A DNA stretch of 64,000 nt from an uncultured Clostridia bacterium (GTDB lineage Bacteria; Bacillota; Clostridia; TANB77; CAG-508). Both the position numbers and the translations under genes were made by a program. Where the stretch lies: positions 18,352 through 82,351 of the forward strand of contig CAKPLQ010000002.1 of assembly GCA_934167685.1 (NCBI GenBank), written 5' to 3'. Positions 13,107 through 28,517 of the stretch are shown here, in pieces. The first letter of the stretch is position 1. Each line of letters opens with the position of its first letter. A model generated the notes under the pieces. The model worked only from the letters and a program-made list of their open reading frames with translations, was not told the DNA's origin and ran no database searches.

Positions 13107-13974
13107 ATGAGTAAACGTAAAAATGGCAAAAAATTGAATAAAGTAAAAGTTAGTGTATGCATATTTCTTATTGTTCTTATTATTGCAATAGGAGTGTTTG
13201 GTAGATATGTTTATAATGGCATAAGAGAGGCGTATTTTACTTCAAAAGCATTTTATTTTACAAGTGATTTATTAACTCTTAATAATGCTACATATCAATA
13301 TGAAAACTGGGGTGGAGTTGATGCATATGAGATTAATTTCGATTTATACAGTTATGCAAATACTTTGCTTAGATTAAACTATGATTTGGAGTATTCGGTT
13401 TCTTGCGAAACTCCAGATACTGATAAAGTAACTCTACGGAATTAATTCTGTAGATGGTCCAACTTCTACAGATGGTATTATATATGCCAATACTGGAGAT
13501 ACTCCTAATAATGTTAGTAGATTAAAGATTGTGGTAACTCCTAAAAGTCAAATTCAGGAAAATGAAAAAATTACTGTAAAGATTAAGGCTAGTACACAAG
13601 AACCATATAAAAAACAGATTTCTTGTGAAATTACTTTAAGAGTAAAACAGTATACTTTAAATAGTTACATAATCGAAGACGTTCCTAATAGAAATTATGC
13701 AACTCTAAAAATAGTTAATGCACAAGCAACAGGTTTGCCTGTTACTTTGGAATTTGACCCTGATGTGGTAAGAATTGATTTGGCAGATGAGGCTTTTGTA
13801 AATAGAACTACAGGAAGTGAAGAAAAAAATGCAAATGGCTATATTAGAAAGTTTATTTTTACAATGGATAAAGAGTCGGTTAGAAATATTAAATTTTATA
13901 AAGTTGATATGTCTAAAGATTATACATTTCCTTCTGGAAGTGCAACATCTGTAATAAAAGTAATTAACGAATAA
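13107..13974 (+). pseudogene. Frameshifted gene for a secreted protein with a SipW-dependent-type N-terminus (two ORFs, 13107-13445 and 13432/13531-13974)
   Basis: RBS gaaaggag lies upstream. The N-terminus is basic, then hydrophobic, then 'GRYVYNGIREAYFTS'. Frame 0 stops at 13443-13445, and the +1 frame is open from 13432. Joining the two reads naturally: ..SCETPDTDKVT|LYGINSVDGPTSTDG... Confidence 0.6.
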
Positions 13975-14071
13975 TTTTTATTTTTTGGAACTCTAAAATA
14001 TGGCTCAAAATGCGGTATTTGTAGGGTTCCAATAAATAACATATATGTAAGAAATTTATTATAAAAAAGTA

Positions 14072-14100
14072 TAGACTTTTAAAAAAAGTTATGGTATAAA
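14072..14100 (+). promoter_or_regulatory. Candidate sigma-A promoter upstream of 14129
   Basis: -35 tagact (14072-77), 17-nt spacer, and extended -10 tg-g-tataaa (14092-14100). Confidence 0.4.
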
Positions 14101-14128
14101 ATATAGTAGGGAAAAAAGGAGGAAAAGA

Positions 14129-14572
14129 ATGAAAAAGGTAAGAAAAGGTAAAAAAATTTTAATATCTGCAATAGTTATATTTATTGCTATTATTGTACTA
14201 GTTGTGGTATTGGTAGTTAATAAAAGTAAAAACAAAAACGAAAACCAAACACCAACTGAAACAGATACGGTTATCTCATTACCAGATACAACTTATAGTG
14301 ACATGGAAGTTAGCAACATCAGTATGGAATATCTAGCTGACCAAGACAAAACTATGGTTTCATTGTCAATATTAAATACTACAAATGAAAACGTATCAAA
14401 CGAAAAATTAAATGCAATTTTAATTGGTTCTGATGAAAATGTTTTAGGACAAATGGAAACATATATCCAAACTTTAGATGCTGGTGACCAATACAATATA
14501 AGTGTGGTTTTAAAAGGAAATCTAACTGGAACAAAATTAATAAAATTAGAAAAAGTAACTGATAATCAATAG
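14129..14572 (+). CDS. Small N-terminally membrane-anchored extracytoplasmic protein (hypothetical)
   Basis: RBS aaaaggagga. The basic N-terminus is followed by one TM (ILISAIVIFIAIIVLVVVLVV) and a beta-rich ectodomain. It is the first gene of a tightly packed run of genes. Confidence 0.6.
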   Translation: MKKVRKGKKILISAIVIFIAIIVLVVVLVVNKSKNKNENQTPTETDTVISLPDTTYSDMEVSNISMEYLADQDKTMVSLSILNTTNENVSNEKLNAILIGSDENVLGQMETYIQTLDAGDQYNISVVLKGNLTGTKLIKLEKVTDNQ

Positions 14573-14620
14573 GTTTATAGGTAAAACCATATAAAAACCT
14601 AAATAAAATAGTAAGCAAGG

Positions 14621-15463
14621 ATGAAAAAAATGAAAAAAGTACTAGGAACTATATTATTTGTATTATATGCCATAATTGCAATAACTGTAACTGTTTTGCT
14701 ATTATCATATAATGATTATAACAATAGCCAAATCGGTGGCTACACTGTGTATATAGTTAAAGATGATTCTTTAGAACCAGAATATAAGCAAGGTTCTATA
14801 CTATTAATTAAAAGCACAAATGATAAAAATGTGCAAGTTGGTGACAAAATGTTCTTATACAAAGTTATAAATAGCCAAGAGTATGAGGTAATAGAAAGAA
14901 CTTTGGAAAGCAAAAAACAACAAGGAAGACATATAGTTTATTATGTAGAAAATGAAGAAACTTATGCTAATGACTATTTTATTGGCAAAACTAGCGATGT
15001 TGTTGTTATACAAGGATGGGGCTATGTTTTGAATTTGCTAGAATCTAAATGGGGATACTTATTCTGCGTTGTAGTTGTATCTTTACTTCTATTCTTACAA
15101 GAAGTATTTGAGTTAGCAATGGAAATTAAATATGGCGGAGGTAAGAAGAAATCAAAAGCTGTGGAAGCAGAGTTTGAAGAGGAGCCAGAAGATGAAAAAA
15201 ATGCAGGACGTGCTGAAGCGGTTGCACATAAGACTGCAGAGGGTGCGCATAAAACTGCAACAAAAACTACAACAAGGAAGCCTGCAACTAAGACTACTAC
15301 AAGAACTAGAACTACAAGTTCAGCAAGTGCAACAGGTACAGCAAAGCCTAGAACTAGAACTACAAGTTCAGCAAGTGCAGCAAAGAAAGCGGCAACAGCA
15401 ACTAAAACAACAAGTTCAGCCAAAGGAGCAAGTGCTAAAAAAACATCAAAAGAGGAAGAATAA
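14621..15463 (+). CDS. Divergent SipW-type signal peptidase I homologue with a long basic low-complexity C-terminal tail
   Basis: It has the same fold signature as the four clear SipW paralogues: N-terminal TM, 'GGYTVYIVKDDSLEPEYKQGSILLIK', 'VGDKM', and a C-terminal TM (YLFCVVVVSLLLFL). The Ser box is DSLEP rather than GSMEP, and the THR box is not conserved. The tail is T/A/K/S-rich with a duplicated ..RTRTTSSASA.. segment. The start may instead be the second ATG at 14630. Confidence 0.65.
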   Translation: MKKMKKVLGTILFVLYAIIAITVTVLLLSYNDYNNSQIGGYTVYIVKDDSLEPEYKQGSILLIKSTNDKNVQVGDKMFLYKVINSQEYEVIERTLESKKQQGRHIVYYVENEETYANDYFIGKTSDVVVIQGWGYVLNLLESKWGYLFCVVVVSLLLFLQEVFELAMEIKYGGGKKKSKAVEAEFEEEPEDEKNAGRAEAVAHKTAEGAHKTATKTTTRKPATKTTTRTRTTSSASATGTAKPRTRTTSSASAAKKAATATKTTSSAKGASAKKTSKEEE

Positions 15464-16105
15464 ATGAAGAAATTATTAACAGTTTTAGTATTAATAATGT
15501 TAATTATATCTTTGTTCCAAATAGCTAATACTTATGCATTATACAAAGAGCAACTAAGTGGAGATTATTCAAATCTATTAGGTATATGGGCAATAAAAGT
15601 AAATGGAGTAGATATATCGTCAGGTGGGGAAAATCTGACCTTTACAATGACAGAAGACAATCTAACATATTTAGATTCTGCTCATGTAAAGAGTCAAAAA
15701 ATTGCGCCAGGAACGCAGGCGTGTTTTGAGATTATAATTGACCCAACCAACACAGATGTATCTATTCTATATACGCTGGATATACAACTTAATAATGTAA
15801 CAACAGCAAGAATGAGTTTAGTAAGAGTTGAAAACTATTTCCAAAAAGATGGAGAAACAGAGCAAATTACTAATGCAGAAGTAAATACAGAAAATGAGCT
15901 TCATAAACATACTGCAATAATACCAGTAGACAAGATAAACAGCAAATATTTAAATCATGTTAAATTATATTTTGAATGGAATAATGTAGAAGAAAACAAT
16001 GAAGCAGATTCAACATTAGGACAAACCGAAAATGCCAAAATATCAATACCACTAGAAATAAATTTAAAACAATATACAGGAGAAGTGATTAGCAATGGAA
16101 CATAA
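15464..16105 (+). CDS. Secreted TasA-like protein with a SipW-dependent-type signal peptide (paralogue of 21646-22284)
   Basis: The ATG directly abuts the upstream stop. The N-terminus is MKKLLTVLVLIMLIISLFQIANTYALYKE. It shares 'W(A/L)IKVN' and C-terminal '(F)(E/R)WN..(E/D)..N..AD' motifs with 21646. Confidence 0.6.
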   Translation: MKKLLTVLVLIMLIISLFQIANTYALYKEQLSGDYSNLLGIWAIKVNGVDISSGGENLTFTMTEDNLTYLDSAHVKSQKIAPGTQACFEIIIDPTNTDVSILYTLDIQLNNVTTARMSLVRVENYFQKDGETEQITNAEVNTENELHKHTAIIPVDKINSKYLNHVKLYFEWNNVEENNEADSTLGQTENAKISIPLEINLKQYTGEVISNGT

Positions 16106-16616
16106 TAAAATATTTAAAATTGCAAAGAAATGCATAATAAATTTAGTAATATTTTTATTAATGTGCATTGCTATTTTTGCAATATGGGGTTTAATACAAA
16201 TAAATGTGCAGAATAAAGAATATATTAATATATTCGGATATTCAGTACTTAGCACAGAAACTGGAAGTATGGCGCCAACAATTCAAAAAGGTGACATTAT
16301 AATAATCAAAATAGGTGATGAAATAAAGGAAAACGATATTATAACATACAAAAAAGACAATGTGCTAATTACTCACAGAATAGTAAGCATTACAGGAGAC
16401 ACTATTATTGCAAGAGGAGATTACAACAACACTGATGATGAGCCAATAAAGAAAGATGCAGTTATAGGTAAAGAGGTTTTTGTTATAAAAAATGTCGAAA
16501 TATGGAAAAAAGTATTTTCTGATAAAAATGTAATAATACCAATAGTTATAACAGTAATTTTATTTATAATACTAGTTTCATACAAAGAAAGAACAGGTGA
16601 GGAAGATGTTAGATAA
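16095..16616 (+). CDS. sipW: SipW-type (archaeal/ER-type) signal peptidase I
   Basis: N-terminal TM, Ser box 'TETGSMAPTIQKGDIIIIK', His box 'LITHRIVSI', 'RGDYNNTDDEPI', and a C-terminal TM. It overlaps both neighbouring genes. Confidence 0.8.
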   Translation: MEHNKIFKIAKKCIINLVIFLLMCIAIFAIWGLIQINVQNKEYINIFGYSVLSTETGSMAPTIQKGDIIIIKIGDEIKENDIITYKKDNVLITHRIVSITGDTIIARGDYNNTDDEPIKKDAVIGKEVFVIKNVEIWKKVFSDKNVIIPIVITVILFIILVSYKERTGEEDVR

Positions 16617-17184
16617 AAAGAAACTAAAGAAAAGTTTTTTTGTGCTTTTGCTAATAGCAATAATAATAATAATAGCAATAATTTTAATAAGAAAAACATT
16701 ATCTAGATACGAAACAACAGCAAATTCAGACAAAGATGTGGACGTAGCATTTTGGATAATAAATGACGATTTTAAAGCTGGAAAAATCTTGATAAAAGAC
16801 ATCTATCCATCAACAAATTCATTTGACTACAAATTTACAGTATCAAACTTTAAAGCAAATGAAGATGGAAGCATCAGCAAAAGAGCAGAAACAGACTTAG
16901 AATATGGATTGACTTTTACAACTACAACAAATTTACCATTAGAATATCAAATAGAAAAAAATGGAACCATTTTAGATACGACACAAGAAATAATAACAGA
17001 TGAAGATGGAACTTATTATAGAAAAATATCTTTAGATACAGCGCAAATGGCACAAGGAACAGATGTTGTTGATAATTTTGTCATAAAAGTAATATTCCCA
17101 AAAGATAATGATATAAATGCAGAATATTCAGATTTAATAGAATATATAAAAATGGATTTAAATGCAAAGCAAATAGTGGAGTAA
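16606..17184 (+). CDS. Secreted TasA-like protein with a SipW-dependent-type signal peptide
   Basis: ATG 16606 is preferred, with ggtgagga 3-6 nt upstream; the ORF track starts at GTG 16597. The N-terminus is MLDKKKLKKSFFVLLLIAIIIIIAIILIRKTLSRYETT, followed by a beta-rich body. It overlaps the sipW stop codon. Confidence 0.6.
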   Translation: MLDKKKLKKSFFVLLLIAIIIIIAIILIRKTLSRYETTANSDKDVDVAFWIINDDFKAGKILIKDIYPSTNSFDYKFTVSNFKANEDGSISKRAETDLEYGLTFTTTTNLPLEYQIEKNGTILDTTQEIITDEDGTYYRKISLDTAQMAQGTDVVDNFVIKVIFPKDNDINAEYSDLIEYIKMDLNAKQIVE

Positions 17185-17201
17185 ATAGTAGAGTAATAGA
17201 C

Positions 17202-17281
17202 TGCACCGATGGGACCGGTTCTTAACGGTGCAGTAAACATAACGCAAAAATGCACCGTTAAGAACCGGTCCCAAACGTGCA
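17202..17281. repeat. Inverted pair of the 31-nt palindromic repeat (units 17202-17232 and 17251-17281, 18-nt spacer)
   Basis: tgcaccgatGGGACCGGTTCTtaacggtgca ... tgcaccgttaAGAACCGGTCCCaaacgtgca. The inner 22 nt of the two units are perfectly complementary. The pair ends 23 nt before ATG 17304. Confidence 0.85.
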
Positions 17282-17303
17282 AAATGGCTGAAAGGGGCAT
17301 AAA

Positions 17304-18347
17304 ATGAATAGTTTGATGGATTCGTATCTAAATTTTACAGAAAAGAAAATAAAGAAATATATGAAGATAATTTTTGCTACATATTATGATGAAGAGATTG
17401 TAGATGAGTTCTTAAGAACTTATATAAATGCAAGATATTATAATGTTCAAAATACAGACAAACCGGCAAGAGCTTTTTATTTAAGAATTTTAGATGAATT
17501 GGAATACAAAGAGGATTTGTTGATGGAAAAATGCGAAGAAGAGGCAGAAAGCCTAGACGAAAAGCAAGCCAAATTGAACAAGATTCATAAAGTTAAAGAA
17601 GTTTTTGGATATGTTTTATTTTTCGACAACGTTAGAAATATTGAAAATTTTAAAAGTATTGACAGTCTTAAAGAAATTATAGAGAAAATTATAGATTTAG
17701 TTAACTCTGATTACGAGATTAAAAATCCAAAAGATGTTGAGGACAAGCTTTACAAAGAAGTTAAAAGTAACATGATTGATAAAGATGTTTTTTTAGAAAA
17801 GTTCGAAACTGATGAGTTTTCATTAAGCTTTGAGGCTACAGAGTTTAATGAAGATTTGTATAATATTAAGTTACAACATAATGTTAAAATGCCAATGCAA
17901 TATAGTGAAAGGGCAATAGAGAAGGTATTTACAGAAGGAATTATTGCAGAGGATAAGTTACAAATTGAATATATTTTGCTAAGCACAATCGCTATAAGAG
18001 ATATTGTTAATAGCAATTTTAAAGATGCGTATATTGCAGAGTTTGAGCCTTCTTTGTTTAAGAAAAAACAAAAGTTGAATGGAATTTTAGATTTAATTAG
18101 TAATCAGGCTTTGCAGGAGAAAATTAATCTGAATATTAGTTATTCTGATTATAAGAAAAATCAAAAAAATGTGCTAGATTATACTAGCAAAGGCTACAAT
18201 TTTGTGATTACTTTAGATGAGGCTGTAAAAAGTGTTGAGGATGTAGAAAAATTGAAGATGTTTAAATTGGTTATTGCACCAAAAGATTTAGTATTATATA
18301 AACAAATTAAAGAAGATAACTCATTAACAAATGTAATGGTAAATTAA
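17304..18347 (+). CDS. Cytoplasmic hypothetical protein (347 aa, acidic/Lys-rich)
   Basis: RBS gaaagggg. No signal peptide or TM segment. It lies directly upstream of the McrB-like NTPase gene. No confident family assignment was possible. Confidence 0.6.
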   Translation: MNSLMDSYLNFTEKKIKKYMKIIFATYYDEEIVDEFLRTYINARYYNVQNTDKPARAFYLRILDELEYKEDLLMEKCEEEAESLDEKQAKLNKIHKVKEVFGYVLFFDNVRNIENFKSIDSLKEIIEKIIDLVNSDYEIKNPKDVEDKLYKEVKSNMIDKDVFLEKFETDEFSLSFEATEFNEDLYNIKLQHNVKMPMQYSERAIEKVFTEGIIAEDKLQIEYILLSTIAIRDIVNSNFKDAYIAEFEPSLFKKKQKLNGILDLISNQALQEKINLNISYSDYKKNQKNVLDYTSKGYNFVITLDEAVKSVEDVEKLKMFKLVIAPKDLVLYKQIKEDNSLTNVMVN

Positions 18348-18381
18348 CGAAATGATGTGATTTTCGAAAGGAAGAAAAAAT

Positions 18382-19935
18382 ATGGAAACATACGGAAGAT
18401 TTTTATTTGAATTTTTACACCAATTCTTTTCTGGATTTGGAGAGATTTTTGGTGGCTTATGGAGAGGAATACTTAGTATTTTTAATGTTCCAGGATATTA
18501 TTATATAATTCAAAATTATGCAAATGATTTTAAAGTATCAGAATGGTTTTTGACTGGATTAGCTATTATTTGTATGCTTGTTGTTATTGGAGGAATTGAT
18601 GGAATAATAGCATTTTTCTTGAAAAAGCATATAAAATGGAGAAAAAAGGTTCTTGACCAAGAAGAATTATTAAAACAAATTGATACTTTAAATGGGCAAG
18701 TTGAAGAATTGGTTGATGAAAAACTTAAATTGCTATCTATGAAAACTCCAGAATTGGGTGTAAATTCTAATGGAATAAGTACAGGAGCTGATAGAACTGC
18801 ACTTGCTGCTGCTCAGTCACAGGCTAATGATGAAGAACAAATTGACCCTAATAGTCAAAGTAGATTCTCTAAATTAACTTTAATAGACCAAGAATATGCA
18901 AAATATAAACAAAAAGATTATCACGATTCATTTACACTACCAGAATTTTGTTATAGATTTAGAAATTTTGCAGCTAGTAAGTTAAAATTGTATTATAGTG
19001 AAAAAATGATTAGATTATTCGTATCAGCTATAGCTTCAACAAAGCTAGTTATCCTACAGGGTATTTCTGGTACTGGTAAAACTTCTATATCTCTTGCTTG
19101 GGGTAACTTTGTAAAGCATCCTTCTTGTGTTGCTTCAGTACAGCCTTCTTGGAGGGATAGAACAGATATTTTTGGGTACTTAAACGAGTTCACTAAAAAG
19201 TTTAACGAAACAGATTTCTTAGCATATTTGTACGAAGCTGGATATACTGATGAAATTTTTACAGTAATCCTAGACGAGATGAACTTGGCGCGTGTTGAGT
19301 ACTATTTTGCAGAAATGTTGTCAATTCTAGAAATGCACAGTACAAAAGATTGGAAGATTGAGGTTGTGCAAAGCTCATGGCCAACAGACCCTAAAAAGTT
19401 AATAAGAGGTAAATTACAAATTCCACCAAATGCTTGGTACATAGGAACAATCAATAACGACGACTCTACATTCATGGTAACAGATAAGGTATACGATAGA
19501 GCTATGCCTATAGATATTAACGAAAAAGGTATTGAATTTGAACCTGATGATATTGATGCACTTGATGTTAATTATTCATATTTAAATGGTCTATTTGAAA
19601 AAGCTATGGTAGATTATGCAATTTCAACGGCTACTTTAAAGAAAATTGATGACATGGATAACTACACAATTAAGCACTTTAGAGTTGCTTTTGGTAACCG
19701 TATTGTAAAACATATGAGAAAATTCGTACCTGTTTATGTAGCTTGTGGAGGAGATGAAACTGAAGCTGTAGATTACTTTATGGCTAAAAAGGTTTTAAGA
19801 AAATTCGAAGCTCTTAACTTGGCATTAATTAGAGATGAAATTGACGGATATATAGAATTCTTAGATAAAAACTTTGGTAAAGGCAAAATGTCTGAATGTA
19901 TAGAATTCTTACTAAGATTGAAGAAGATGTCATAG
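18382..19935 (+). CDS. Membrane-anchored McrB-family (AAA_5) AAA+ NTPase
   Basis: Two N-terminal TM segments (GILSIFNVPGYYYII; FLTGLAIICMLVVIGGIDGIIAFFL) precede a coiled coil. Walker A is LQGISGTGKTS and Walker B is VILDEMNLARVEYYFAEMLSILE. 'PPNAWYIGTINNDDSTFMVTDKVYDRAMPIDI' parallels McrB 'PENVYIIGLMNTADRS..D.ALRRRF.FI'. Confidence 0.75.
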   Translation: METYGRFLFEFLHQFFSGFGEIFGGLWRGILSIFNVPGYYYIIQNYANDFKVSEWFLTGLAIICMLVVIGGIDGIIAFFLKKHIKWRKKVLDQEELLKQIDTLNGQVEELVDEKLKLLSMKTPELGVNSNGISTGADRTALAAAQSQANDEEQIDPNSQSRFSKLTLIDQEYAKYKQKDYHDSFTLPEFCYRFRNFAASKLKLYYSEKMIRLFVSAIASTKLVILQGISGTGKTSISLAWGNFVKHPSCVASVQPSWRDRTDIFGYLNEFTKKFNETDFLAYLYEAGYTDEIFTVILDEMNLARVEYYFAEMLSILEMHSTKDWKIEVVQSSWPTDPKKLIRGKLQIPPNAWYIGTINNDDSTFMVTDKVYDRAMPIDINEKGIEFEPDDIDALDVNYSYLNGLFEKAMVDYAISTATLKKIDDMDNYTIKHFRVAFGNRIVKHMRKFVPVYVACGGDETEAVDYFMAKKVLRKFEALNLALIRDEIDGYIEFLDKNFGKGKMSECIEFLLRLKKMS

Positions 19936-19952
19936 AAAGGATAGAAAAGTAA

Positions 19953-21077
19953 ATGGACTTAAATGTAATGAAACTTGCCAATATGGAAAGTGGACAATCA
20001 TCACAGGATTTTTTGAACAAGGTTGATTCTAAATTAATGATTGATGTTAACAAAAGTCAAATTGTAGAAAATGATGAATGGATTGATATGGTTGAGTTTT
20101 CACTTCCACATATAGAAAAGGCTTTGACAAAAGAGATTAAAAATATTGTTACTGAAGAGGAAATAATAAAAATTGAATTAATTAAAAAGGTAAGTGTTGA
20201 AAGTGTAAAACATTTGTCAAAAAACGTAAACTATGTTGATAAATTTAATCAGAAAACAGGAGAAGTAATTCCTAAAAAGATTTTGAATGCATATAAAGAA
20301 GAGACTTTTATTACATATGAAAATAGATTCTTATACAGCCTTATAAAATTGATTGAAGATTACATGTATTTGCGCGAAAAAGACCAACAAACCGAGTATA
20401 AAGGTAAGAATGAAGAAAAGGCAAATTATCAAGCTGAAGTTAAATACAAAAAAGAAAAAATTAAAGTTAACTTTGATTATTCATCAGAAAGCAATATTGG
20501 CGCTAAAAAGTCAGATGATACAGCTGAAAGAATTCAAGATATTAAAAAGAAAATTAAAGATTTAAAGACTACTAATGTATATCAATTATTACAATCAAAA
20601 AGGATTACTCTTGTAAAATCACCTTTAAAAATGACTAATGTATTGTTAAAAAATGTGCATTTTCAATATGCGGTCAAATTGTGGAATTATTTAAGCGAAC
20701 AAATAGAAATAAAAGATAAAGCAGTAAAAACAAATAAAGTCTATGAAGAAAATGGAATTGCAAAAAAACTTGTAGATGAAAATGTATTTTTAATGCATTT
20801 GATTTTTAAAAATCGTGATATAGAAGAGAAACTGAAAGGTCAAAAAAAGAGTGCATTAGAGGATAAAAAGGCAAGAAAAGAATTGACTGATGATTTGATA
20901 GAAAAAATAATTGAGTTAAATCCTGATATATCTGACAAGGATTTGAAGCAGATGATTGCAGATAAACTAATATTAATGAAAACTCGTAAGTTAATTTCTT
21001 TAAAACCTATTGAAGATAGATTTAAAGAGCGAATTAATAAATATATGGTACTAGCAAAAGAAGTGAGGTTAAAATAA
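19953..21077 (+). CDS. Cytoplasmic partner protein of the McrB-like NTPase; possibly McrC/DUF2357-like but with no recognisable nuclease motif
   Basis: It starts 18 nt after the NTPase gene and its stop is 2 nt before the next sipW. 'ITYENRFLYSLIKLIEDY' and 'TNVLLKNVHFQYAVKLWNYL' recall the N-terminal region of McrC-like partners. The C-terminus is Lys/Glu-rich with no PD-(D/E)xK pattern. Confidence 0.5.
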   Translation: MDLNVMKLANMESGQSSQDFLNKVDSKLMIDVNKSQIVENDEWIDMVEFSLPHIEKALTKEIKNIVTEEEIIKIELIKKVSVESVKHLSKNVNYVDKFNQKTGEVIPKKILNAYKEETFITYENRFLYSLIKLIEDYMYLREKDQQTEYKGKNEEKANYQAEVKYKKEKIKVNFDYSSESNIGAKKSDDTAERIQDIKKKIKDLKTTNVYQLLQSKRITLVKSPLKMTNVLLKNVHFQYAVKLWNYLSEQIEIKDKAVKTNKVYEENGIAKKLVDENVFLMHLIFKNRDIEEKLKGQKKSALEDKKARKELTDDLIEKIIELNPDISDKDLKQMIADKLILMKTRKLISLKPIEDRFKERINKYMVLAKEVRLK

Positions 21078-21079
21078 AA

Positions 21080-21649
21080 ATGAATGACGAAAGAGAAAAT
21101 GTGGGGAGAAAGTGTGTTCAAATTATTTGGAATATATTTTCTAGAATATTAACAATAGCTGTGATACTGGTATGTATAGTAATTATAGTACAAAAGGTAA
21201 GTAATAATAAGGAGTCATTTTTTGGATATAGAATATTCAGAGTTCAAACAGGAAGTATGATTCCGAAGTACCAAATAGGAGATGTTATTCTTGTAAAAGA
21301 GAAAGAGCCAAGCAAAATTAAAGTTGGTGATGACGTTACATATAATGGAGAAGCTAGTTCTGTTAAAGGACTGTTGATAACCCATAGAGTAATAAATATC
21401 GAAGAGATTGATGGTCAAAGAGTTTTCCATACCAAAGGTATTGCTAACAATTTGGAAGACCCTATTGTATATGAACATCAGATTAATGGAGTAGTTCAAA
21501 GCAAATTATATATTTTAACATTTATTTGTACTTTGTTTAATAATAAATATGTATTCTATTTTTGTGGAATCTTACCTTTATCTATATATGTAGTTTTTAG
21601 ATTTTTTAAAGGAAAGCGTTACGAAGATATTGAAAGGGAAAACAGATGA
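21080..21649 (+). CDS. sipW: SipW-type signal peptidase I
   Basis: N-terminal TM, 'FFGYRIFRVQTGSMIPKYQIGDVILVKE', 'IKVGDDVTY', 'LITHRVINI', 'HTKGIANNLEDP', and C-terminal TM(s). Confidence 0.85.
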   Translation: MNDERENVGRKCVQIIWNIFSRILTIAVILVCIVIIVQKVSNNKESFFGYRIFRVQTGSMIPKYQIGDVILVKEKEPSKIKVGDDVTYNGEASSVKGLLITHRVINIEEIDGQRVFHTKGIANNLEDPIVYEHQINGVVQSKLYILTFICTLFNNKYVFYFCGILPLSIYVVFRFFKGKRYEDIERENR

Positions 21650-22284
21650 GAAAAAAAAGGATAGTGTTTTTTTTAGAAATATTGTGTATTATTTCATTAT
21701 TGATTACAATGTTATCTATACAAAGAACTTATGCAAGATATTTTGAAATGGTTGATACAACATATGATACACATATTAAAAGATGGCTAATTAAAGTTAA
21801 TTCACACAATATACATGAAGAGCAGACTCTTACAGAAGTTATGCAACCTGTTTTAGTAGAAGATGAAAACAGAAATAGCAATGTTTTAGTTCCTGGTGGA
21901 ACTGGATATTTTGATATGGTATTAGATTACAATTATGTTGATGTGGCTTTTCAGTATGAATTTTCTATAGAACAGCTTAATACCAACCAATTAGCGGATT
22001 TTGAGTTATATGGATATGAAATAATTGATGGCGATACTTCAACTGTTACAGAAACAAATGAATTGAAGGGCGTAATTGAACCAGAGACTGATGTTAATAG
22101 TGCAGGAGAAAAGATTCGAGAAGTAAGGTTTTTGTTTAGATGGAATGATGGTGATGGTAGTACTATGAATAATCAAGCTGATACGCAGTTTAGAGGCGAA
22201 GCAAATACTAATCAGCAAGATTTACATACTATTTTAAACTATAGAGCGACTTTAAAGTTTAGTCAGTATATACCAACAACATAA
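21646..22284 (+). CDS. Secreted TasA-like protein with a SipW-dependent-type signal peptide (paralogue of 15464-16105)
   Basis: It overlaps the sipW stop (ATGA). The N-terminus is MRKKRIVFFLEILCIISLLITMLSIQRTYARYFE. It carries 'RWLIKVNSHNI' and 'FLFRWNDGDGSTMNNQAD'. Confidence 0.6.
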   Translation: MRKKRIVFFLEILCIISLLITMLSIQRTYARYFEMVDTTYDTHIKRWLIKVNSHNIHEEQTLTEVMQPVLVEDENRNSNVLVPGGTGYFDMVLDYNYVDVAFQYEFSIEQLNTNQLADFELYGYEIIDGDTSTVTETNELKGVIEPETDVNSAGEKIREVRFLFRWNDGDGSTMNNQADTQFRGEANTNQQDLHTILNYRATLKFSQYIPTT

Positions 22285-22302
22285 AAAGAGGGGTGAAAAT
22301 TG

Positions 22303-22440
22303 ATGGAAATTAAAAATATTAAAACATCAAAATTAGAAAATAAAGAATTATTAGATGTTCAAAAACAAGTTGAAAGTTTTTTAAAGTTTTTAAATACTGA
22401 ATATGATACTGTTAAAAAATTAGAGGAGGAAAATTCATGA
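22303..22440 (+). CDS. Small ORF (45 aa, MEIKNIKTSKLENKELLDVQKQVESFLKFLNTEYDTVKKLEEENS), not in the ORF track
   Basis: RBS aaagagggg lies 7 nt upstream. Its stop overlaps the next start (ATGA at 22437-22440). It carries the RBS gaggagga of the downstream gene. It is predicted helical and acidic. Confidence 0.35.
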   Translation: MEIKNIKTSKLENKELLDVQKQVESFLKFLNTEYDTVKKLEEENS

Positions 22441-24044
22441 AAGAATTAGTAGAAAATGTAGAAAAACAAATAGCAACAGATAAAGAGGTCATTTCAGTTT
22501 TACCAAGAAATGGTATAAAAGCTATAAAAACGTTGGCTCAAACAATACTAGAAATGCAAGAAAAATATGAGGCAGTTAATGAGACATTGGTAAAGGAAAT
22601 TAAAGCTAGATATAGCGAACTTACAGAGGTTGAGGCCAATAAAGAAATCCCTCAAATTGAAACTGAGATAATGAAATATGATGTAGCTGTTAAAAACACA
22701 GATACTCGCTCATCTTTTGAAAAAATGGGATTGGATAAAGTTACATATAATATTAATGGATATTATAAAAGCAATTTAGAAAGATTGAATAAAGAGTTAA
22801 TTGACTGTGTAAAACAGTTCGAAAGTGTTGGAATAAGGCTAGATGAGAACGATTTTGATTTGAGCGAATATTCTAAAAAATACATGTCTGTTTTATTAAA
22901 AGAGGCTTATGATGGCAATATCAATTCTGAAATAATTAAAAATACTTTTGAAAAGGTGTATTGGGAATGTTCTGATGTTGTTTCTCATTTGTATGCATGT
23001 GTAAGATACATTTATGACAAATATGAAAATGAGATTGATAAATTTTACGAAAACAAAGCAGAAGAGATATTGAAAAGCTTCAAACTAACTCCAGAGGAAG
23101 TTGAAGAAAAAAAGGCTGAGATGATTAAAAAGAAAAATAGAATTGAAGCTACCGATAATAAGATTATTTTAGATAAGTTTTTTACAGGTGCACTAAATAT
23201 AAATGATTATAAAGGTGATAACTATAAGAAGATTTATATAGAGCTAACTGATAAAGATGTTTCTGATATGTCTGATTCTGAAAAAGCAGAAATGGATGAG
23301 AATATTGAAAAGTTAAATGAAAATTTAGATGAATATGCTAAATATTCTGAATATAAATTCTTAGTTGATGAAATATTAAAGATAAGAGCTGAAGAAGAGA
23401 AAAAGCTTCAAGCCAAAAAAGATAAAAAAAGTAAAAATACAGATTATGATTTGACTAGAGAGAAACTTAAAAAATTGAAATCAGAAATTTTTAAGTTAAA
23501 TGGCAAAATTGCTAAACCTAAAAAAAGTCTTTTTGGAAAGAAAAATGACAAAAAAGATAGTTCTGCTATTTTACAAAGAAACAACTTGATTTTAGAATTG
23601 AAAAATACTTATATGGATTTAGACAATGAAATTTTAAGAAAGAAAATAGTTGAAAATATTGATGATACATCATCTTTACTTGATGTACTTAAACTTGCAA
23701 GTAGTTATTATTGGTTTATGGCCAAATCTATGATTGCTAAAAATGAAGAGATAACAGATAAAGAGATTGGCGATACTGCTAAAAAGATTAGAGATTTTAT
23801 TAATTTTTCTAATTTTTCTGTAATAAATTATATCAAAATTAGTGATACCAAGGAATTGGCAGTTATAATTAAAGATAAATATAAATTGTTTGATATGCAA
23901 GTTTCTAAAGAGAATTTTCAAGAAGACAATATTGAGGATTTGATTAAGAAGGTTAAGATTGTAAGCAATTATAATAATATACAAAAAAGTAAATTTTCTG
24001 TTGAGGATTTAGAGTATATTACAACAGTAAAAGAAATGAAATAA
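22437..24044 (+). CDS. Cytoplasmic Lys/Glu-rich coiled-coil protein (535 aa, hypothetical)
   Basis: Strong RBS gaggagga. No TM or signal peptide. It has long heptad-like K/E/L stretches and sits between sipW/TasA-like gene pairs. Confidence 0.6.
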   Translation: MKELVENVEKQIATDKEVISVLPRNGIKAIKTLAQTILEMQEKYEAVNETLVKEIKARYSELTEVEANKEIPQIETEIMKYDVAVKNTDTRSSFEKMGLDKVTYNINGYYKSNLERLNKELIDCVKQFESVGIRLDENDFDLSEYSKKYMSVLLKEAYDGNINSEIIKNTFEKVYWECSDVVSHLYACVRYIYDKYENEIDKFYENKAEEILKSFKLTPEEVEEKKAEMIKKKNRIEATDNKIILDKFFTGALNINDYKGDNYKKIYIELTDKDVSDMSDSEKAEMDENIEKLNENLDEYAKYSEYKFLVDEILKIRAEEEKKLQAKKDKKSKNTDYDLTREKLKKLKSEIFKLNGKIAKPKKSLFGKKNDKKDSSAILQRNNLILELKNTYMDLDNEILRKKIVENIDDTSSLLDVLKLASSYYWFMAKSMIAKNEEITDKEIGDTAKKIRDFINFSNFSVINYIKISDTKELAVIIKDKYKLFDMQVSKENFQEDNIEDLIKKVKIVSNYNNIQKSKFSVEDLEYITTVKEMK

Positions 24045-24050
24045 TATAGG

Positions 24051-24659
24051 GTGAGGACAAAATTGGAATATGATGTTGAAAAACTTTCTAACAAAATTAG
24101 AAAGAAAAAAAGGACAAAGAGGCTATTTAAAATTATAATACTTGTTTGTTTGATTATACTTTTTCTGATTAATTTGATTTTATCATTTGAAGAACATACT
24201 CATATTTTGGGAATATATATGTTTAATATTGTTTCCGAGAGTATGGAGCCAACATTTTATAAAAATGATTTGGCTGTTGTAGGAAAATGTCAACTGAGTG
24301 AGTTGAAAAAGGGTGATATTATAACATTTAAACAGGATGATAGAATTATTTCACACAGAATATTACAAATTACTAAAGAAAAAGGTGATATTAGATTTAT
24401 TACTAAAGGCGATAATAATGAAGTTGCAGATAAAGACGCAGTACTACCAAATGATGTTTATGGAAAAGTCTGCTTCATTATTCCTAAATTAGGAATTGCA
24501 GTTCATTATATACAAAATGCGCGAGGCTTGATTAATGTATTTATTTTTATGTTTATTTTATATTTTTTGGTTAGCCTTAAAGATAATCAGAAAAATAGCA
24601 GAAAAATTAAAAGGAAGAAATATGAAATTAAGAAGCTTAGGGATAATTACAATGTATAA
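24051..24659 (+). CDS. sipW: SipW-type signal peptidase I
   Basis: 'IVSESMEPTFYKNDLAVVGK', 'KKGDIITF', 'IISHRILQI', 'ITKGDNNEVADKD', a C-terminal TM, and a basic tail (KIKRKKYEIKKLRD). The start is uncertain: GTG 24051, or TTG 24063 with gggtgagga upstream. Confidence 0.8.
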   Translation: MRTKLEYDVEKLSNKIRKKKRTKRLFKIIILVCLIILFLINLILSFEEHTHILGIYMFNIVSESMEPTFYKNDLAVVGKCQLSELKKGDIITFKQDDRIISHRILQITKEKGDIRFITKGDNNEVADKDAVLPNDVYGKVCFIIPKLGIAVHYIQNARGLINVFIFMFILYFLVSLKDNQKNSRKIKRKKYEIKKLRDNYNV

Positions 24660-24673
24660 AAGAGGTATGAAAT

Positions 24674-25315
24674 ATGGAGAAAAAGATATTTCGAATAGTA
24701 TTTAAAGTAATATATCAAATAATTGTTATAATATGCTTGATATTAGCTGCTGTGATTATAATGCAAAAGGTCACTGATAGCAACAGGTCAATTGCAGGAT
24801 ACAGAATATTTAGGGTCATTACAGGAAGTATGGAGCCAGAATATGACGTTGGCGAAGTTGTTATTAGCAAAGAAGTTCCTACTAAAGATATTAAGGTTGG
24901 AAACGATATTGTATACATTGGAAGAAATGGTGAATATAGTGGAAAGATTATCATGCACAGTGTTATTGCAATTGATAAAGACGAAAATGGTAATTATAAT
25001 TTCCATGCCAAAGGTTTACACAGCAGTAGTGTGGAGGATCCTCAAATTAAAGAAAACCAAATTTATGGAGTTGTTAAATACAAATCAAAAATATTAACTG
25101 TATTATACAAATTAGCAACTAATATATACACGGTATTTGTCATCATTTTAGTTTTAGTATTAAATGTGTTTATTGCTTTTACTGGAAATAGAAAAGACAA
25201 AGTACAAAAACTTAGTGAGTCAACTTATATTGATGAAGATGAAGAAGTTGATGAGGACGAAGACGTTATCGACGAGGATTCGGGGAATGTAGAAAATACT
25301 GACGAAGAAGAGTAA
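24674..25315 (+). CDS. sipW: SipW-type signal peptidase I with an acidic C-terminal tail
   Basis: 'IAGYRIFRVITGSMEPEYDVGEVVISKE', 'IKVGNDIVY', 'IIMHSVIAI', a C-terminal TM, and then the tail DEDEEVDEDEDVIDEDSGNVENTDEEE. Confidence 0.8.
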   Translation: MEKKIFRIVFKVIYQIIVIICLILAAVIIMQKVTDSNRSIAGYRIFRVITGSMEPEYDVGEVVISKEVPTKDIKVGNDIVYIGRNGEYSGKIIMHSVIAIDKDENGNYNFHAKGLHSSSVEDPQIKENQIYGVVKYKSKILTVLYKLATNIYTVFVIILVLVLNVFIAFTGNRKDKVQKLSESTYIDEDEEVDEDEDVIDEDSGNVENTDEEE

Positions 25316-25342
25316 ATTTACAAAAGAAGGAATGGAGGATTT

Positions 25343-26041
25343 ATGAATATATTACGTGAATTCAGACGAGTAAAAAAGCGAAGTATGTCGTCAAGGATTA
25401 GATTAGTTTTGATTTTTGCTGTAATATTAATAGTAAATACTTATGCATGGTTTAGTACAGAGCGAGCCATTAGCACCAAGGGGCTAGAGGCTTCGATAAC
25501 ACCATGGGATATTAAATATTATGTTGATGGAAAAGAAGTTTTGGACGAAGATGTTACTTTTACAATTGACGAATTATATCCAGGAATGCCTAGCAGAGAG
25601 GATAATGTTCATGTTTATAACATGAGCACAACCAGTTCTGCTATAAGTTATGAATTAATATCGGTTAAAGTTTTTGGGCAAGAAGTATTAAGTCAATTAA
25701 AAGAAGATGGAGAAATCCAATCTGATGGTAACACCGTCAGGATTTTTGCCAATAACAATTCATATCCTTTTGATATAAGTTATACATATGACAAAACAAG
25801 AATTGATGGGGAATACAAAGATGATGAATCGACTCCAAATGCAGGTGCCAAGTTTTCGCTTAACGTAAATTGGGATTATAAAGGAAACGGTACTGAAGAT
25901 GAAAATTTAGCCAAAGATGTTTTAGACACAAAGTTTGGAAAAGATGCATACAAATATTACCAAAATGGAGAAAATGATTCATCTAAAGCAATTGAAATTG
26001 TTGTAAAGATAACAACATCAATGATTAAGGAAAAGAAATAA
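25343..26041 (+). CDS. Secreted TasA-like protein with a SipW-dependent-type signal peptide
   Basis: RBS ggaggat. The N-terminus ..RLVLIFAVILIVNTYAWFSTERAIS can be compared with TasA ..GGGTWAAFND. The body is beta-rich and ends in 'FSLNVNWDYKGNGTEDE'. Confidence 0.7.
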   Translation: MNILREFRRVKKRSMSSRIRLVLIFAVILIVNTYAWFSTERAISTKGLEASITPWDIKYYVDGKEVLDEDVTFTIDELYPGMPSREDNVHVYNMSTTSSAISYELISVKVFGQEVLSQLKEDGEIQSDGNTVRIFANNNSYPFDISYTYDKTRIDGEYKDDESTPNAGAKFSLNVNWDYKGNGTEDENLAKDVLDTKFGKDAYKYYQNGENDSSKAIEIVVKITTSMIKEKK

Positions 26042-26081
26042 CTTGTAATAAAAATGTAATAAAAATGTAATATTAAATTCA

Positions 26082-26110
26082 TTGACAATAAAATTAAGAC
26101 TGAGTATAAT
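26082..26110 (+). promoter_or_regulatory. Consensus sigma-A promoter inside the locus
   Basis: TTGACA (26082-87), 17-nt spacer, and TATAAT (26105-10). It is preceded by the 11-nt tandem gtaataaaaat x2. Confidence 0.55.
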
Positions 26111-26160
26111 GTTAATAGAATTGTTGAAAAAAAATATTTTTTGAAGAACCAGGTGAGATT

Positions 26161-26949
26161 ATGGCGAATAAAGTAGATGAAACAAAAAATGAACCTACAC
26201 TTGAAGAACAAATTGATGAAAAAACAGCTAGTACACGACTGGAAGAAAAGGCAAAAAAAGAAAAAAGAAAGCGAACCAGAAGAATTGCATTTAGAGTTCT
26301 GTTAGGGCTTATAGTAATATTTATGATTAATGTATATATTATTTTATCAATATTTTATAGAGGCGAAAATTTTACTGTAACACTTGACAGTGAGTACGGA
26401 AGAGAGAGTGGATTAGTTATATACGAAGACAGAAATCAAAAGTATACAAGAACTTTTTTAAGATCTAAAGATATTGACTTTTTTACAGATATATCAGTCA
26501 ACTGGCTACCAGAAAATATCGACAATGAGGGCGATGGCTCACACAATGGAAGAAACTACATTGCTTATACTTTTTATGCAGAAAATATGGGACAAGATAC
26601 AATTAACTATTGGACAACCATAAAAATTGATGACATTGTAAAGAATGTAGATGAAGCTATTAGGGTCATGGTTTTTAAAAATGGTAATAAGGTTATTTAT
26701 GCAAAGAATAACAGAGAAACAGAGCTACCTGAACCAGATACAGTGCCATTTAAAAATGAAGATACTGTAATGTTAGAGTTATCAGAGAACTTCAAAGTGG
26801 GAGATATTGATAAATGGACTGTTGTTGTTTGGGTAGAGGGGGATGATCCAGAGTGCAAAGATGATTTAATTGGTGGAGAAATTAAAATGCATATGACTCT
26901 TACCGAAGAACATATATTGCAGGATGATGAAATTCCACAAAACCAATAA
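26161..26949 (+). CDS. Signal-anchored TasA-like paralogue (charged N-terminus, one TM, beta-rich ectodomain)
   Basis: The TM is IAFRVLLGLIVIFMINVYIILSIF. The C-terminal motif 'VVVWVEGDDPECKDDLIGGEIKMHMTL' parallels 'VYVWIEGQDPDCINYASLGQGLTLNLGL' of 27027-28226. It contains a single Cys. Confidence 0.6.
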   Translation: MANKVDETKNEPTLEEQIDEKTASTRLEEKAKKEKRKRTRRIAFRVLLGLIVIFMINVYIILSIFYRGENFTVTLDSEYGRESGLVIYEDRNQKYTRTFLRSKDIDFFTDISVNWLPENIDNEGDGSHNGRNYIAYTFYAENMGQDTINYWTTIKIDDIVKNVDEAIRVMVFKNGNKVIYAKNNRETELPEPDTVPFKNEDTVMLELSENFKVGDIDKWTVVVWVEGDDPECKDDLIGGEIKMHMTLTEEHILQDDEIPQNQ

Positions 26950-27026
26950 AAGAAAAACAAAAGACAAAAAATGTTTATAAAATTTACCAATAAAAAGAAA
27001 ATAAAAGAAAAGGAAGGAAAGAAAAA

Positions 27027-28226
27027 ATGAGAGAAAAAAATCAAAAAGATTCAAGAAAAAGATTAAATGCTTTAATTTTATTAGTAGCATTTACAGCCGT
27101 ATTGTTGATTGTTTCAACATATGCATGGTTCTCTACACAGAGAAATGTAGTATTAAATGGACTTAGTGGTCAAGTAAACGTGGCAGAAGGACTACAAGTA
27201 TCATTAGATGCAAAACACTGGGTAAACTCAATAAATTTTAGTGATTTTACTCAAACAAGTGCAACATCATGGACTGTAAAAGATTCTGCAACAACAACAT
27301 ATTTAGATGCAGGAAAAACATTCCAAGCACCAGCAGAAGGAATTACAAATGTAGTTCCAACAGAATATTTACCAGTTTCAACAACAGCTCAACAAGATGA
27401 AGGAATAGGAAAAACAGGACTTATAATGTATAATGGTACATATACAGATTCTGAAGGTTTAAAAGGTATAGATATAGCGACAGAAGCATCAGATTCAGGA
27501 TTCTTTGCATTTGATTTATATTTAATGAATACTACATCTGGTGAGTCAACAACAGACAAACTTCAATTGGATTCAGTTTCAGATGTAATTGGTACAAATG
27601 AAGCAACAGGTATCCAAAATACTGTAAGAGTAGGTTTAGCGTTATATGGAAATTCTGGAGCTGCAATGAAAATTGGACAAACTACAGAACCAGATCAAGC
27701 AGCTATTATAGCAGGAACATCTACAGAGAAAAATATAACAGATGTTGCAATTTGGGAACCAAATGCTGATGCACATGCTGATACTATAGTAAACTCAAAA
27801 TCTAACTCACTAAAATTATTAGATAATGATAATACTACATATCAATTAACAGCTAATGCAGCAGGAATTTCAACTTTTGCTAATGGAAAAAAATTACCTA
27901 CATATGCTTTAACAGCAACTTCAAAAACAACTGGAACAATTAAAGATGTATATGATTGGAAAAATAATCCTACTACAACAGGCTTAACAAAACAAAATAC
28001 AACACAAACAGTTGCTCAAACAGGTACAGATGATGCAAGACCTGCTCCAATTGACTTAATGAGCGCTGCAAATGGAACTACTCCTGTTACAATTATAGCA
28101 AATCAATATCAAAAAATGAGAGTTTATGTTTGGATTGAAGGTCAAGACCCTGACTGTATCAACTATGCTTCTTTAGGACAAGGCTTAACTTTAAATCTTG
28201 GATTAAGCAAACCAGAAAATACTTAA
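27027..28226 (+). CDS. Predicted major TasA-like fibre subunit with a SipW-dependent-type signal peptide
   Basis: RBS aaggaaggaaag. The N-terminus is ..LNALILLVAFTAVLLIVSTYAWFSTQRNV. The composition is T/A/G/N/S-rich with a single Cys in the WIEGQDPDC motif. It is the last gene of the run and is followed by a strong terminator. Confidence 0.7.
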   Translation: MREKNQKDSRKRLNALILLVAFTAVLLIVSTYAWFSTQRNVVLNGLSGQVNVAEGLQVSLDAKHWVNSINFSDFTQTSATSWTVKDSATTTYLDAGKTFQAPAEGITNVVPTEYLPVSTTAQQDEGIGKTGLIMYNGTYTDSEGLKGIDIATEASDSGFFAFDLYLMNTTSGESTTDKLQLDSVSDVIGTNEATGIQNTVRVGLALYGNSGAAMKIGQTTEPDQAAIIAGTSTEKNITDVAIWEPNADAHADTIVNSKSNSLKLLDNDNTTYQLTANAAGISTFANGKKLPTYALTATSKTTGTIKDVYDWKNNPTTTGLTKQNTTQTVAQTGTDDARPAPIDLMSAANGTTPVTIIANQYQKMRVYVWIEGQDPDCINYASLGQGLTLNLGLSKPENT

Positions 28227-28258
28227 GATGATAACTAATAAGAAATATATAAGAACAG

Positions 28259-28289
28259 AAGAGACTACATATTAAGCGTAGTCTCTTTT
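28259..28289 (+). terminator. Rho-independent terminator closing the fibre locus
   Basis: aagagactac / gtagtctctt form a 10-bp stem with a 9-nt loop, followed by a T-run. Confidence 0.8.
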
Positions 28290-28357: not shown

Positions 28358-28386
28358 CTTGACAACATCAAAATGAGAATGTATAA
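28358..28386 (+). promoter_or_regulatory. Consensus sigma-A promoter upstream of 28518
   Basis: TTGACA (28358-63), 17-nt spacer, and TATAAT (28381-86). Confidence 0.6.
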
Positions 28387-28517
28387 TGTACTCAAATTTT
28401 TTATATAGCATTATTTATATTCAAAACATTTATTAATTTTTCAAAGGAGTTTTTACTTCATATTAATAATTAAATCTATTTTTAGATTAAATCAAAATTT
28501 TTAAGGAGGATGGTAAG

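Follow-up and report, generated by a model that had tools for sequence, protein, structure and literature searches.

The described systems closest to the gene array studied here are the TasA-type fiber operons, the CoCoPALM class and the McrBC restriction systems. The array lies in a 64,000-nucleotide (nt) stretch of DNA from an uncultured Clostridia bacterium (assembly GCA_934167685.1, contig CAKPLQ010000002.1, positions 18,352 to 82,351 of the forward strand), which we call the window (about 30% G+C). The interval 13107-28289 of the window is a single same-strand gene array, bounded by the 3' end of a giant open reading frame (ORF) on one side and by the RNase J and GltX housekeeping genes on the other. 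Genes are named by their first position, and the features given with coordinates below are on the plus strand (+).

In the operons tapA-sipW-tasA of Bacillus subtilis and sipW-bsaA-bsaB-bsaC of Clostridium perfringens, an S26B signal peptidase adjoins the secreted proteins, as it does in this locus. The T-aromatic-A|x-F cleavage context and predicted beta-rich subunits with an N-terminal extension are also shared, and the best matches of one modeled subunit (class A, see below) include the TasA fiber. However, each of the TasA and BsaA operons has one peptidase and none has a GTPase, a McrC-like protein or a coiled-coil module, whereas the locus has all three and five peptidase paralogs, one of them dead. 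The locus also differs in having no Peptidase_M73 or TIGR04088 membership and in a major-subunit fold that is unmatched. In the model proposed for C. perfringens BsaA, signal-anchored monomers undergo strand exchange and are then cut by SipW, and extra machinery is needed to cross the peptidoglycan. (The word 'McrB' in the C. perfringens BsaA paper belongs to an E. coli strain genotype only.)

CoCoPALM was described in three sentences, with the details deferred to a later paper (Bell et al., eLife 2024), and our literature search found no such later paper. According to this description, a McrB-like GTPase fused to an FtsB-like transmembrane (TM) and coiled-coil domain and a McrC homolog with coiled coils are encoded together with proteins of the signal peptidase family, and the class is defined as a relative of the CoCoNuT defense systems (Bell et al., 2024). 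The locus fits the CoCoPALM class and is best regarded as a detailed example of this named, uncharacterized class: it encodes a GTPase with an N-terminal TM and a putative coiled-coil extension, a DUF2357 McrC partner with a helical extension and no evident nuclease and, alongside them, signal-peptidase-family proteins (five paralogs in the window). Beyond the published description, it has four predicted active peptidases and a dead one, several families of subunits with a TYA-type motif, an anchor candidate (26161), a linked giant protein and a conserved frameshift.

Judged from its sequence, and with a probability of about 0.6, the locus would be an envelope machine of monoderm gut bacteria for the GTPase-coupled assembly of a multi-subunit surface fiber, which probably displays the giant adhesin. 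A multi-subunit fiber had been proposed in the initial annotation, and the subunit motif, the variation pattern of 27027 and the gene linkage all speak for it; that proposal left out the McrB/DUF2357 module, and the locus is not a plain tapA-sipW-tasA operon. All ORFs of that annotation were found where it had placed them, but its account of the locus was made without 14129, 17304, 18382, 19953, 22437 and a 45-aa ORF at 22303, which make up about one third of the interval.

The GTPase module, in the middle of the cluster, is the most conserved part of the locus and is what puts the locus in the CoCoPALM class. The membrane-anchored McrB-like AAA+ GTPase (18382..19935) carries a Walker A motif GISGTGKTS, a Walker B motif ILDEMN and the signature INNDD, in which I-N-N-D-D is compatible with 'NxD followed by D' and also with NxxD. 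It matched the AAA+ domain of E. coli McrB (6hz4) with E = 9e-5 and the PADLOC candidate PDC-M26A with 1.8e-36. Its N-terminus consists of an invariant METYGRFLFEFL segment, a TM (residues 62-80) and then a heptad-rich stretch (QEELLKQIDTLNGQVEELVDEKLKLL). The mean identity of the GTPase across species is 92%, compared with 91.7% for RNase J. The segment encoded by 18382-18540 (about 53 codons, METYGRFLFEFLxQFFSGF...), which precedes the TM, is near-invariant even in homologs that are 72-77% identical overall, and this aromatic-rich part may form a second membrane-embedded or interaction element.

The McrC-like gene (19953..21077) begins 17 nt downstream of the GTPase gene. Its N-terminal domain matched PF09823 (DUF2357) with 4.6e-8 (33 bits against a cut-off of 23.3), and its C-terminal half is Lys/Glu-rich and helical. 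No nuclease was detected in this protein, as Pfam searches of the C-terminal half up to E ≤ 10 gave only sub-threshold matches and the whole protein had no match among PDB sequences. Two cytoplasmic helical proteins without TM, 17304 (17304..18347) and the coiled-coil-like 22437 (22437..24044), are paralogs of each other (blastp 3e-8). As in canonical McrBC, the AAA+ GTPase core (Walker A, Walker B and N-x-(x)-D) is thus followed immediately by a DUF2357 partner. Unlike the type IV restriction systems, the GTPase has a membrane anchor in place of the DNA-binding N-domain, sequence searches detected no PD-(D/E)xK nuclease in the partner, and the pair is embedded in an envelope-protein operon with housekeeping-like conservation and synteny. 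An inserted defense cassette as the source of the McrBC-like pair was rejected on the same two grounds, synteny and conservation.

The conservation of the locus as a unit, which the initial annotation had named as a check, was borne out at two distances. Gene order is unbroken from the giant gene through 27027 in 20 species-representative genomes (L007-L026; metagenome-assembled genomes of uncultured Clostridia, Bacilli or Eubacteriales, one of them a complete 1.55-Mb chromosome), where most proteins other than the GTPase have mean identities to the window of 65-77%. A metagenome scan with the GTPase gave 80 loci, the majority with 55-63% identity to the window's GTPase and a few near-identical, and 28 distant loci with enough flanking sequence were used to count components. 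The GTPase, the McrC-like protein and a 21080-type peptidase are present in 28/28, with the McrC-like gene following the GTPase gene and the 21080-type peptidase directly 3' of the McrC-like gene in every case. Proteins like 13107, 21646 and 25343 were each found in 27 of the 28 loci, the 14621-like peptidase in 25, a 17304-like gene directly upstream of the GTPase in 25, 26161-like and 27027-like proteins in 23 each, and a 22437-like gene, placed at one end of the cluster or the other, in 12; most subunits fall within 20-27 of the 28. All 8,000 GTPase candidates that were scored passed E ≤ 0.001, and the system is common in uncultured gut Firmicutes and in others derived from metagenomes.

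The usual order in the distant loci is [giant], [24051-type], pseudo-peptidase, 15464-, 16095-, 16597-, 13107- and 17304-like, GTPase, McrC-like, 21080-type, 25343-like, 21646-like (on the opposite strand), 26161-like, 27027-like (one or two copies) and [22437-like]. Compared with this order, the window has an extra 21080/24674 duplication, 21646 lies next to 21080, and 38856 is displaced by 10 kb. The arrangement in the window is therefore derived and expanded. One of the species genomes (L023, 18240-20578) repeats the pseudo-peptidase, 15464-, 16095- and 16597-like genes in a second, divergent form (about 30% identity) downstream of its main locus; this four-gene module therefore duplicates as a unit.

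Five peptidase genes stand in the array, and all five proteins matched TIGR02228 (archaeal/ER-type signal peptidase I, curated cut-off 51.85 bits) and the SipW model NF046067 (equivalog cut-off 190 bits). Four are predicted to be active and exceed the TIGR02228 cut-off: the SipW/Sec11-type 16095 (16095..16616, 67.3 bits, two TM), 21080 (21080..21649, 86.8 bits), its poly-acidic-tailed paralog 24674 (24674..25315, 62.7 bits; 38% identity to 21080, with which it forms one subtype), and 24051 (24051..24659, 111.2 bits), the closest to canonical SipW/Sec11. The fifth, 14621 (14621..15463), has 38.9 bits and a long basic low-complexity tail. The best match, 24051, also hit human SEC11A and SEC11C (SEC11C 1e-12). 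With five matches to both models and this SEC11A/SEC11C match, the S26B assignment, as initially annotated, is sound. NF046067 gave at most 93.4 bits (24051), and because this is below the equivalog cut-off we regard the four enzymes as SipW-like, not as SipW orthologs. Hydropathy places two membrane segments in each of the five, one on either side of the catalytic domain, and therefore the C-terminal tail, which differs greatly in length among species, is predicted to be on the cytoplasmic side.

A census of catalytic residues was made in 234 peptidase-family members from all fetched loci. In the 16095 family, Ser is kept in 52/53 (one gap), and His and the two Asp in 53/53. The 21080 family keeps Ser and His in 66 of 67 members and the second Asp in all 67, and the 24674 family keeps Ser and His in 31/31. 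The catalytic residues are conserved in the 24051 family too, and in all four of these families Ser, His and the second Asp show no or almost no variation. In the 14621 family, by contrast, His is found in 0/51 and Ser in 21/51, and the Asp box is deleted; 14621 reads IERT against (T/S/M)H(R/S) in its paralogs. Because this gene is kept in so many of the distant loci, we consider the family, as far as residues can tell, a conserved, catalytically dead pseudo-peptidase rather than a decaying gene. Of the five dedicated peptidases claimed initially, four thus keep Ser, His and Asp, but 14621 is dead in all 51 family members examined. The claim that each peptidase adjoins its substrate is true in part. 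Junctions are tight or overlapping (14621/15464 0 nt; 15464/16095 -11; 16095/16597 -20; 19953/21080 +2; 21080/21646 -4, the last an overlap of the ATGA type), but 24051 is followed by another peptidase and not by a substrate.

Seven or eight secreted proteins share an N-terminus in which basic residues and a single hydrophobic segment are followed by a motif of the T-[YF]-A-x-[FY] type (13107/13531, 15464, 16597, 21646, 25343, 27027 and 38856). The strings initially quoted (NTYALYKE, KTLSRYET, RTYARYFE, NTYAWFST, STYAWFST, GRYVYNG...AYFTS and STFAWLAYS) are all present. Across distant lineages the motif reads STYAWF(T/S)AN in the 27027 family, NTYAWF in 25343, TYAKY in 21646, TYA(L/V)F in 15464 (TYA(L/V/I)F in its orthologs), xxA(K/R)Y(E/R)S in 16597 and (G/A)(R/K)Y(V/I)...FYFxSDKL in 13107. 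Since they recur in orthologs of the 20 species genomes and in about 50 distant metagenome loci, these motifs are not due to chance. TasA matures after TWA|AFND (the TasA sequence used is identical to PDB 8aur), which makes the TYA-type class plausible for SipW-type cleavage.

Paralogy among these proteins is limited. The class-A small subunits 15464 (15464..16105, NTYA|LY, start abutting the stop of 14621) and 21646 (21646..22284, RTYA|RYFE, with the ATGA overlap into 21080) are full-length paralogs (blastp 2e-15; hhalign 98.3%), and the 21646 family has 1,571 representatives of 50% clusters. The subunit 16597 (16597..17184, KTLSRYET, 20-nt overlap with 16095) resembles 21646 in its N-terminal part only. 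The class-B small subunit 25343 (25343..26041, NTYA|WFST) is paralogous over its whole length to the N-terminal module of 38856 (blastp 4e-14) and similar to 27027 over the first ~45 residues only (blastp 1e-7). A 'signature' had also been noted at the C-termini; the quoted strings are there, but detectable homology is confined to the pair 15464 and 21646 and to a weak C-terminal match between 26161 and 27027.

The candidate major subunit 27027 (27027..28226, STYA|WFST) has more than 1,100 homologs, of which not one bears a name or a Pfam domain. No other protein of the locus varies as much (38-76% identity, mean 46%, in the 20 species genomes), and the variation of 27027 is uneven: residues 1-60 and the last 40 are conserved, with column identities of 0.85-0.93 in the signal helix and the first ~30 mature residues and of about 0.8 in the last 40, against 0.37-0.7 in the middle. 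Conserved termini, a variable middle and its place as the last gene ahead of a terminator-like hairpin agree with its earlier description as major-subunit-like. In contrast to 27027, the neighboring 26161 (26161..26949) is the second most conserved protein (mean 83%); its Lys-rich, cytoplasmic N-terminus is followed by a TM (residues 46-64) and an extracellular domain ending WVEGDDPEC, and a TYA-type motif is absent. We take this type-II anchored protein as a candidate membrane base or anchor.

The distal gene 38856 (38856..40505, STFA|WLAY) joins the 25343-like module to a C-terminal FGE-sulfatase/lectin-like domain, whose Pfam match to FGE-sulfatase was sub-threshold (5.7e-4, 20.1 bits against a cut-off of 23.3). 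In the window it lies among housekeeping genes, but its full-length orthologs directly follow the 27027 ortholog in eight species, which, with the 25343 paralogy, bears out its assignment as a displaced member of the system. In one metagenome locus (L102), the C-terminal domain of 38856 occurs inside a different protein of 688 aa.

On the GTPase-coupled fiber reading, pre-proteins would enter the membrane through Sec and stay anchored there by their unusually conserved signal helices, and the paralogous peptidases would each cut the client encoded next door after its TYA-type site, with pseudo-peptidase 14621 perhaps holding or chaperoning without cleavage. Once freed, the N-terminal segment would insert into a neighboring subunit, as in TasA and BsaA; this is proposed because the N-terminal mature segment is conserved and because pLDDT (predicted local distance difference test score) is low there in the AlphaFold2 (AF2) monomer models, directly after the predicted cleavage sites of both 27027 and 21646. 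In such a fiber, 27027 would make up the variable shaft and 26161 the base in the membrane, and minor or tip positions would be taken by the small proteins and 38856. A module at the cytoplasmic face may consist of the GTPase ring with its McrC-like activator, both helical paralogs and the peptidase tails, and it could gate or power the release of subunits or drive the polymer through the wall. The basis for this GTPase role is its invariant linkage, membrane anchoring and extreme conservation. A functional analogy exists with type IV pili and type II pseudopili, in which membrane-anchored pre-subunits with conserved N-terminal helices, a dedicated peptidase, a cytoplasmic hexameric NTPase, and one major and several minor subunits also work together. 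Unlike in type IV pili, where the enzyme is an aspartic prepilin peptidase, the peptidases of the locus are S26B enzymes on the outer face, the predicted cut falls after the helix and not before it, the NTPase is of the McrB family and not PilB, and there is no PilC-like platform.

The alternative that survives best, and that overlaps with fiber assembly, is an export and anchoring apparatus for the giant adhesin, in which the small TYA-type proteins would build a short GTPase-powered pseudopilus-like structure or collar that takes the adhesin across the peptidoglycan and keeps it at the surface. The window holds the C-terminal 4,346 codons of the giant surface protein (1..13041); the ORF is open at the window start, with no stop codon in bases 1-30, and the protein matched DUF285 in Pfam (2.8e-24). 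The in-window part lacks both an LPXTG motif and a TM segment at its C-terminus, which would suit a protein of more than 4,300 residues that depends on its own exporter. Large ORFs homologous to its last ~1,000-1,500 residues (25-31% identity, up to 316 bits) stand beside the system in at least 16 distant loci, and the visible N-termini of these homologs have a basic stretch, a TM and 'TTYF(K/R/A)(S/T)YG(E/D)', that is, by sequence, a signal of the same class as in the small subunits. This flanking position and shared signal type uphold the initially suggested link between adhesin and system. In distant loci a 24051-type peptidase directly follows the giant gene, and wall crossing in C. perfringens requires extra machinery of the pilus type; both agree with dedicated export. 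However, in about 15 of the 35 distant loci that include upstream sequence a large ORF is missing there (it may lie elsewhere), and 27027, with its duplication and hypervariability, resembles an abundant subunit of an exposed shaft. We consider an apparatus serving only the adhesin unlikely, and prefer the assembly of a fiber that probably displays it.

A second alternative, the one closest to the initial annotation, is an ordinary expanded operon of the TasA superfamily, with one SipW per subunit, assembly outside the cell without energy input and the McrB/McrC-like genes as unrelated passengers. SipW-type peptidases do adjoin proteins with TasA-like cleavage motifs, TasA and BsaA fibers polymerize with Sec and SipW alone, and the class-A model puts the TasA fiber second among its structural matches. 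Against such an operon, the GTPase and McrC-like genes keep the same position in 20/20 species loci and 28/28 distant loci, both genes are the most conserved ones of the cluster, contrary to an inserted, variable defense cassette, one 'SipW' is dead, and membership of TasA fails by hidden Markov model (HMM). This second alternative is quite improbable.

Several of the results on TasA likeness also weigh against the GTPase-coupled fiber reading itself. No HMM ties any subunit to TasA/Peptidase_M73: in Pfam and NCBIfam, the locus proteins gave no match to TasA/Peptidase_M73 (PF12389), TIGR04087, TIGR04089 or TIGR04090, and Peptidase_M73 was unmatched in Pfam even among 107 diverse class-A relatives. 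Searching isolated N-termini with TIGR04088 gave a top match for 27027 of 14.2 bits (E = 0.038, below the cut-off of 19) and none for the other six. Family profiles of 27027 and of class A had no match among PDB sequences, and hhalign of class-A profiles (23 and 107 sequences) to TasA gave probabilities of 0.2% and 0.5%. The AF2 model of 27027 was of good quality (pLDDT 88, predicted template modeling score 0.86), yet Foldseek found no PDB match with E < 0.3 and no significant BFVD match. For the 21646 model (pLDDT 73), Foldseek placed the TasA fiber 8aur_A second (E = 1.9e-3, prob 0.99, TM score 0.31/0.28) and the archaeal TasA homolog AbpA (7ueg_A) at rank 16; with a TM score of ~0.3 and E > 0.001, this match stands amid generic jelly rolls. 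As initially annotated, the 'TasA-like' label for the secreted proteins thus does not hold by HMM, is marginal by fold for 21646 and finds nothing in PDB for 27027; we regard it as weakly supported. The GTPase N-terminus had no DivIC/FtsB match in Pfam even at E ≤ 10, so that Pfam did not reproduce the FtsB similarity published for CoCoPALM, and both the McrB family and the PADLOC match come from a defense context.

Least probable of all is a conflict or defense system derived from McrBC, with secreted and membrane proteins acting in abortive infection or exclusion rather than adhesion: the McrB-family GTPase with its PDC-M26A match (1.8e-36) and the definition of CoCoPALM as a CoCoNuT relative favor it, but no nuclease was detected in the McrC-like protein, the GTPase has a TM and no DNA-binding N-domain, the locus has a fixed position beside RNase J and GltX with its order kept in 20/20 related species genomes, the GTPase is conserved at the level of RNase J, and the system is present in genomes of ~1.5-1.7 Mb. 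Position, universality and the housekeeping-like conservation of the GTPase pair are the reasons why the defense system and the ordinary TasA operon both fit poorly.

If GTPase-coupled fiber assembly is correct, a restriction-enzyme motor has been recruited for building the cell surface, which would add a route to the Gram-positive ones of sortase pili, type IV pili and TasA-type fibers. Since about 28 kb with the adhesin is maintained in genomes of ~1.5-1.7 Mb, the locus is probably central to gut attachment. With the parts listed here (active and dead peptidases, subunit classes, anchor, variable shaft and linked adhesin), three published sentences become a set of items open to testing. More tentatively, the locus might represent a previously uncharacterized pilus/adhesin assembly pathway of monoderm bacteria, in which a membrane-anchored McrB GTPase ring, activated by a nuclease-less McrC partner, would gate or power subunit release, cleavage and polymerization, combined with client-specific S26B peptidases, a dead holder, a giant adhesin and dosing of one minor subunit by a programmed CGG frameshift; this combination as a whole we offer as a possibility.

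The frameshift lies in the first gene of the array (13107..13974), which encodes a pilin-like subunit with a TM and a GRYVYN...FYFTSD N-terminus and which the initial annotation had correctly called frameshifted. Frame 0 covers 13107-13445, and the +1 frame picks up at GGA (13438) and extends to 13974, with CTA (13434-36) CGG (13437-39) as the shift site; the window reads CTA CGG AAT TAA at 13434-13445. The junction YTR-CGG-WAT was found in 16 sequences, namely the window, 13 species genomes and two metagenome contigs (L007-L013, L016-L018, L022, L025, L026, L029, L030). A sequencing error was rejected as the cause of the split, as the same junction occurs in 16 independent assemblies. Intact orthologs of 13107 are present in L015, L020 and L023 (285-288 aa) and in 12 distant loci. 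If one base is skipped once the Leu/Ile codon has been read, '(L/I)-G-I-N-x-x-D-G-P-T' is regained, at the length of the intact L015 ortholog. Among the Arg codons of the window, CGG is used least (3 of 17,602 codons). We regard the split as a candidate for programmed +1 ribosomal frameshifting at a hungry CGG codon, for which the Ty1/Ty3 sites of yeast, with programmed +1 frameshifting at a starved codon, are the comparison. The conserved shift is thereby a candidate bacterial example of +1 frameshifting at a hungry codon.

Some minor features complete the locus. The terminator-like hairpin that closes the cluster (28259..28287) has a short T-run 3' of its stem. The promoter scan was overall uninformative (90 sites, with 97 expected by chance); it placed a consensus promoter ahead of 26161, at 26082-26110. 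The small N-terminally anchored protein 14129 (14129..14572, TM residues 12-30) has no significant family match in Pfam and NCBIfam and is restricted to close relatives, being kept in L007-L026 with a mean identity of 56% yet in only one of the 28 distant loci.

The 45-aa helical ORF (22303..22440) shares 4 nt with the start of 22437. Gene calls on same-species contigs include it, and it is 78-96% identical in genomes of other species and related contigs. A weak counterpart of it was seen upstream of 22437-like genes in two metagenome loci (L072 and L073). An ORF of this length is lost at cut-offs of 80 aa or more.

Downstream of the hairpin, 28518-28928 (+) encodes a small cytoplasmic protein with 'W(E/A)ENxKRWEEN' repeats, which has its own consensus promoter (28359-28387) and is kept downstream of 27027 in close relatives. 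Its odd PADLOC match (1.4e-8) is to a model labeled diadenylate cyclase and is probably a coiled-coil or low-complexity artifact. Finally, a 438-aa ORF at 40675-41991 (+) starts within a region overlapped by a minus-strand ORF and ends in an ATGA-type overlap into uvrA (41988).

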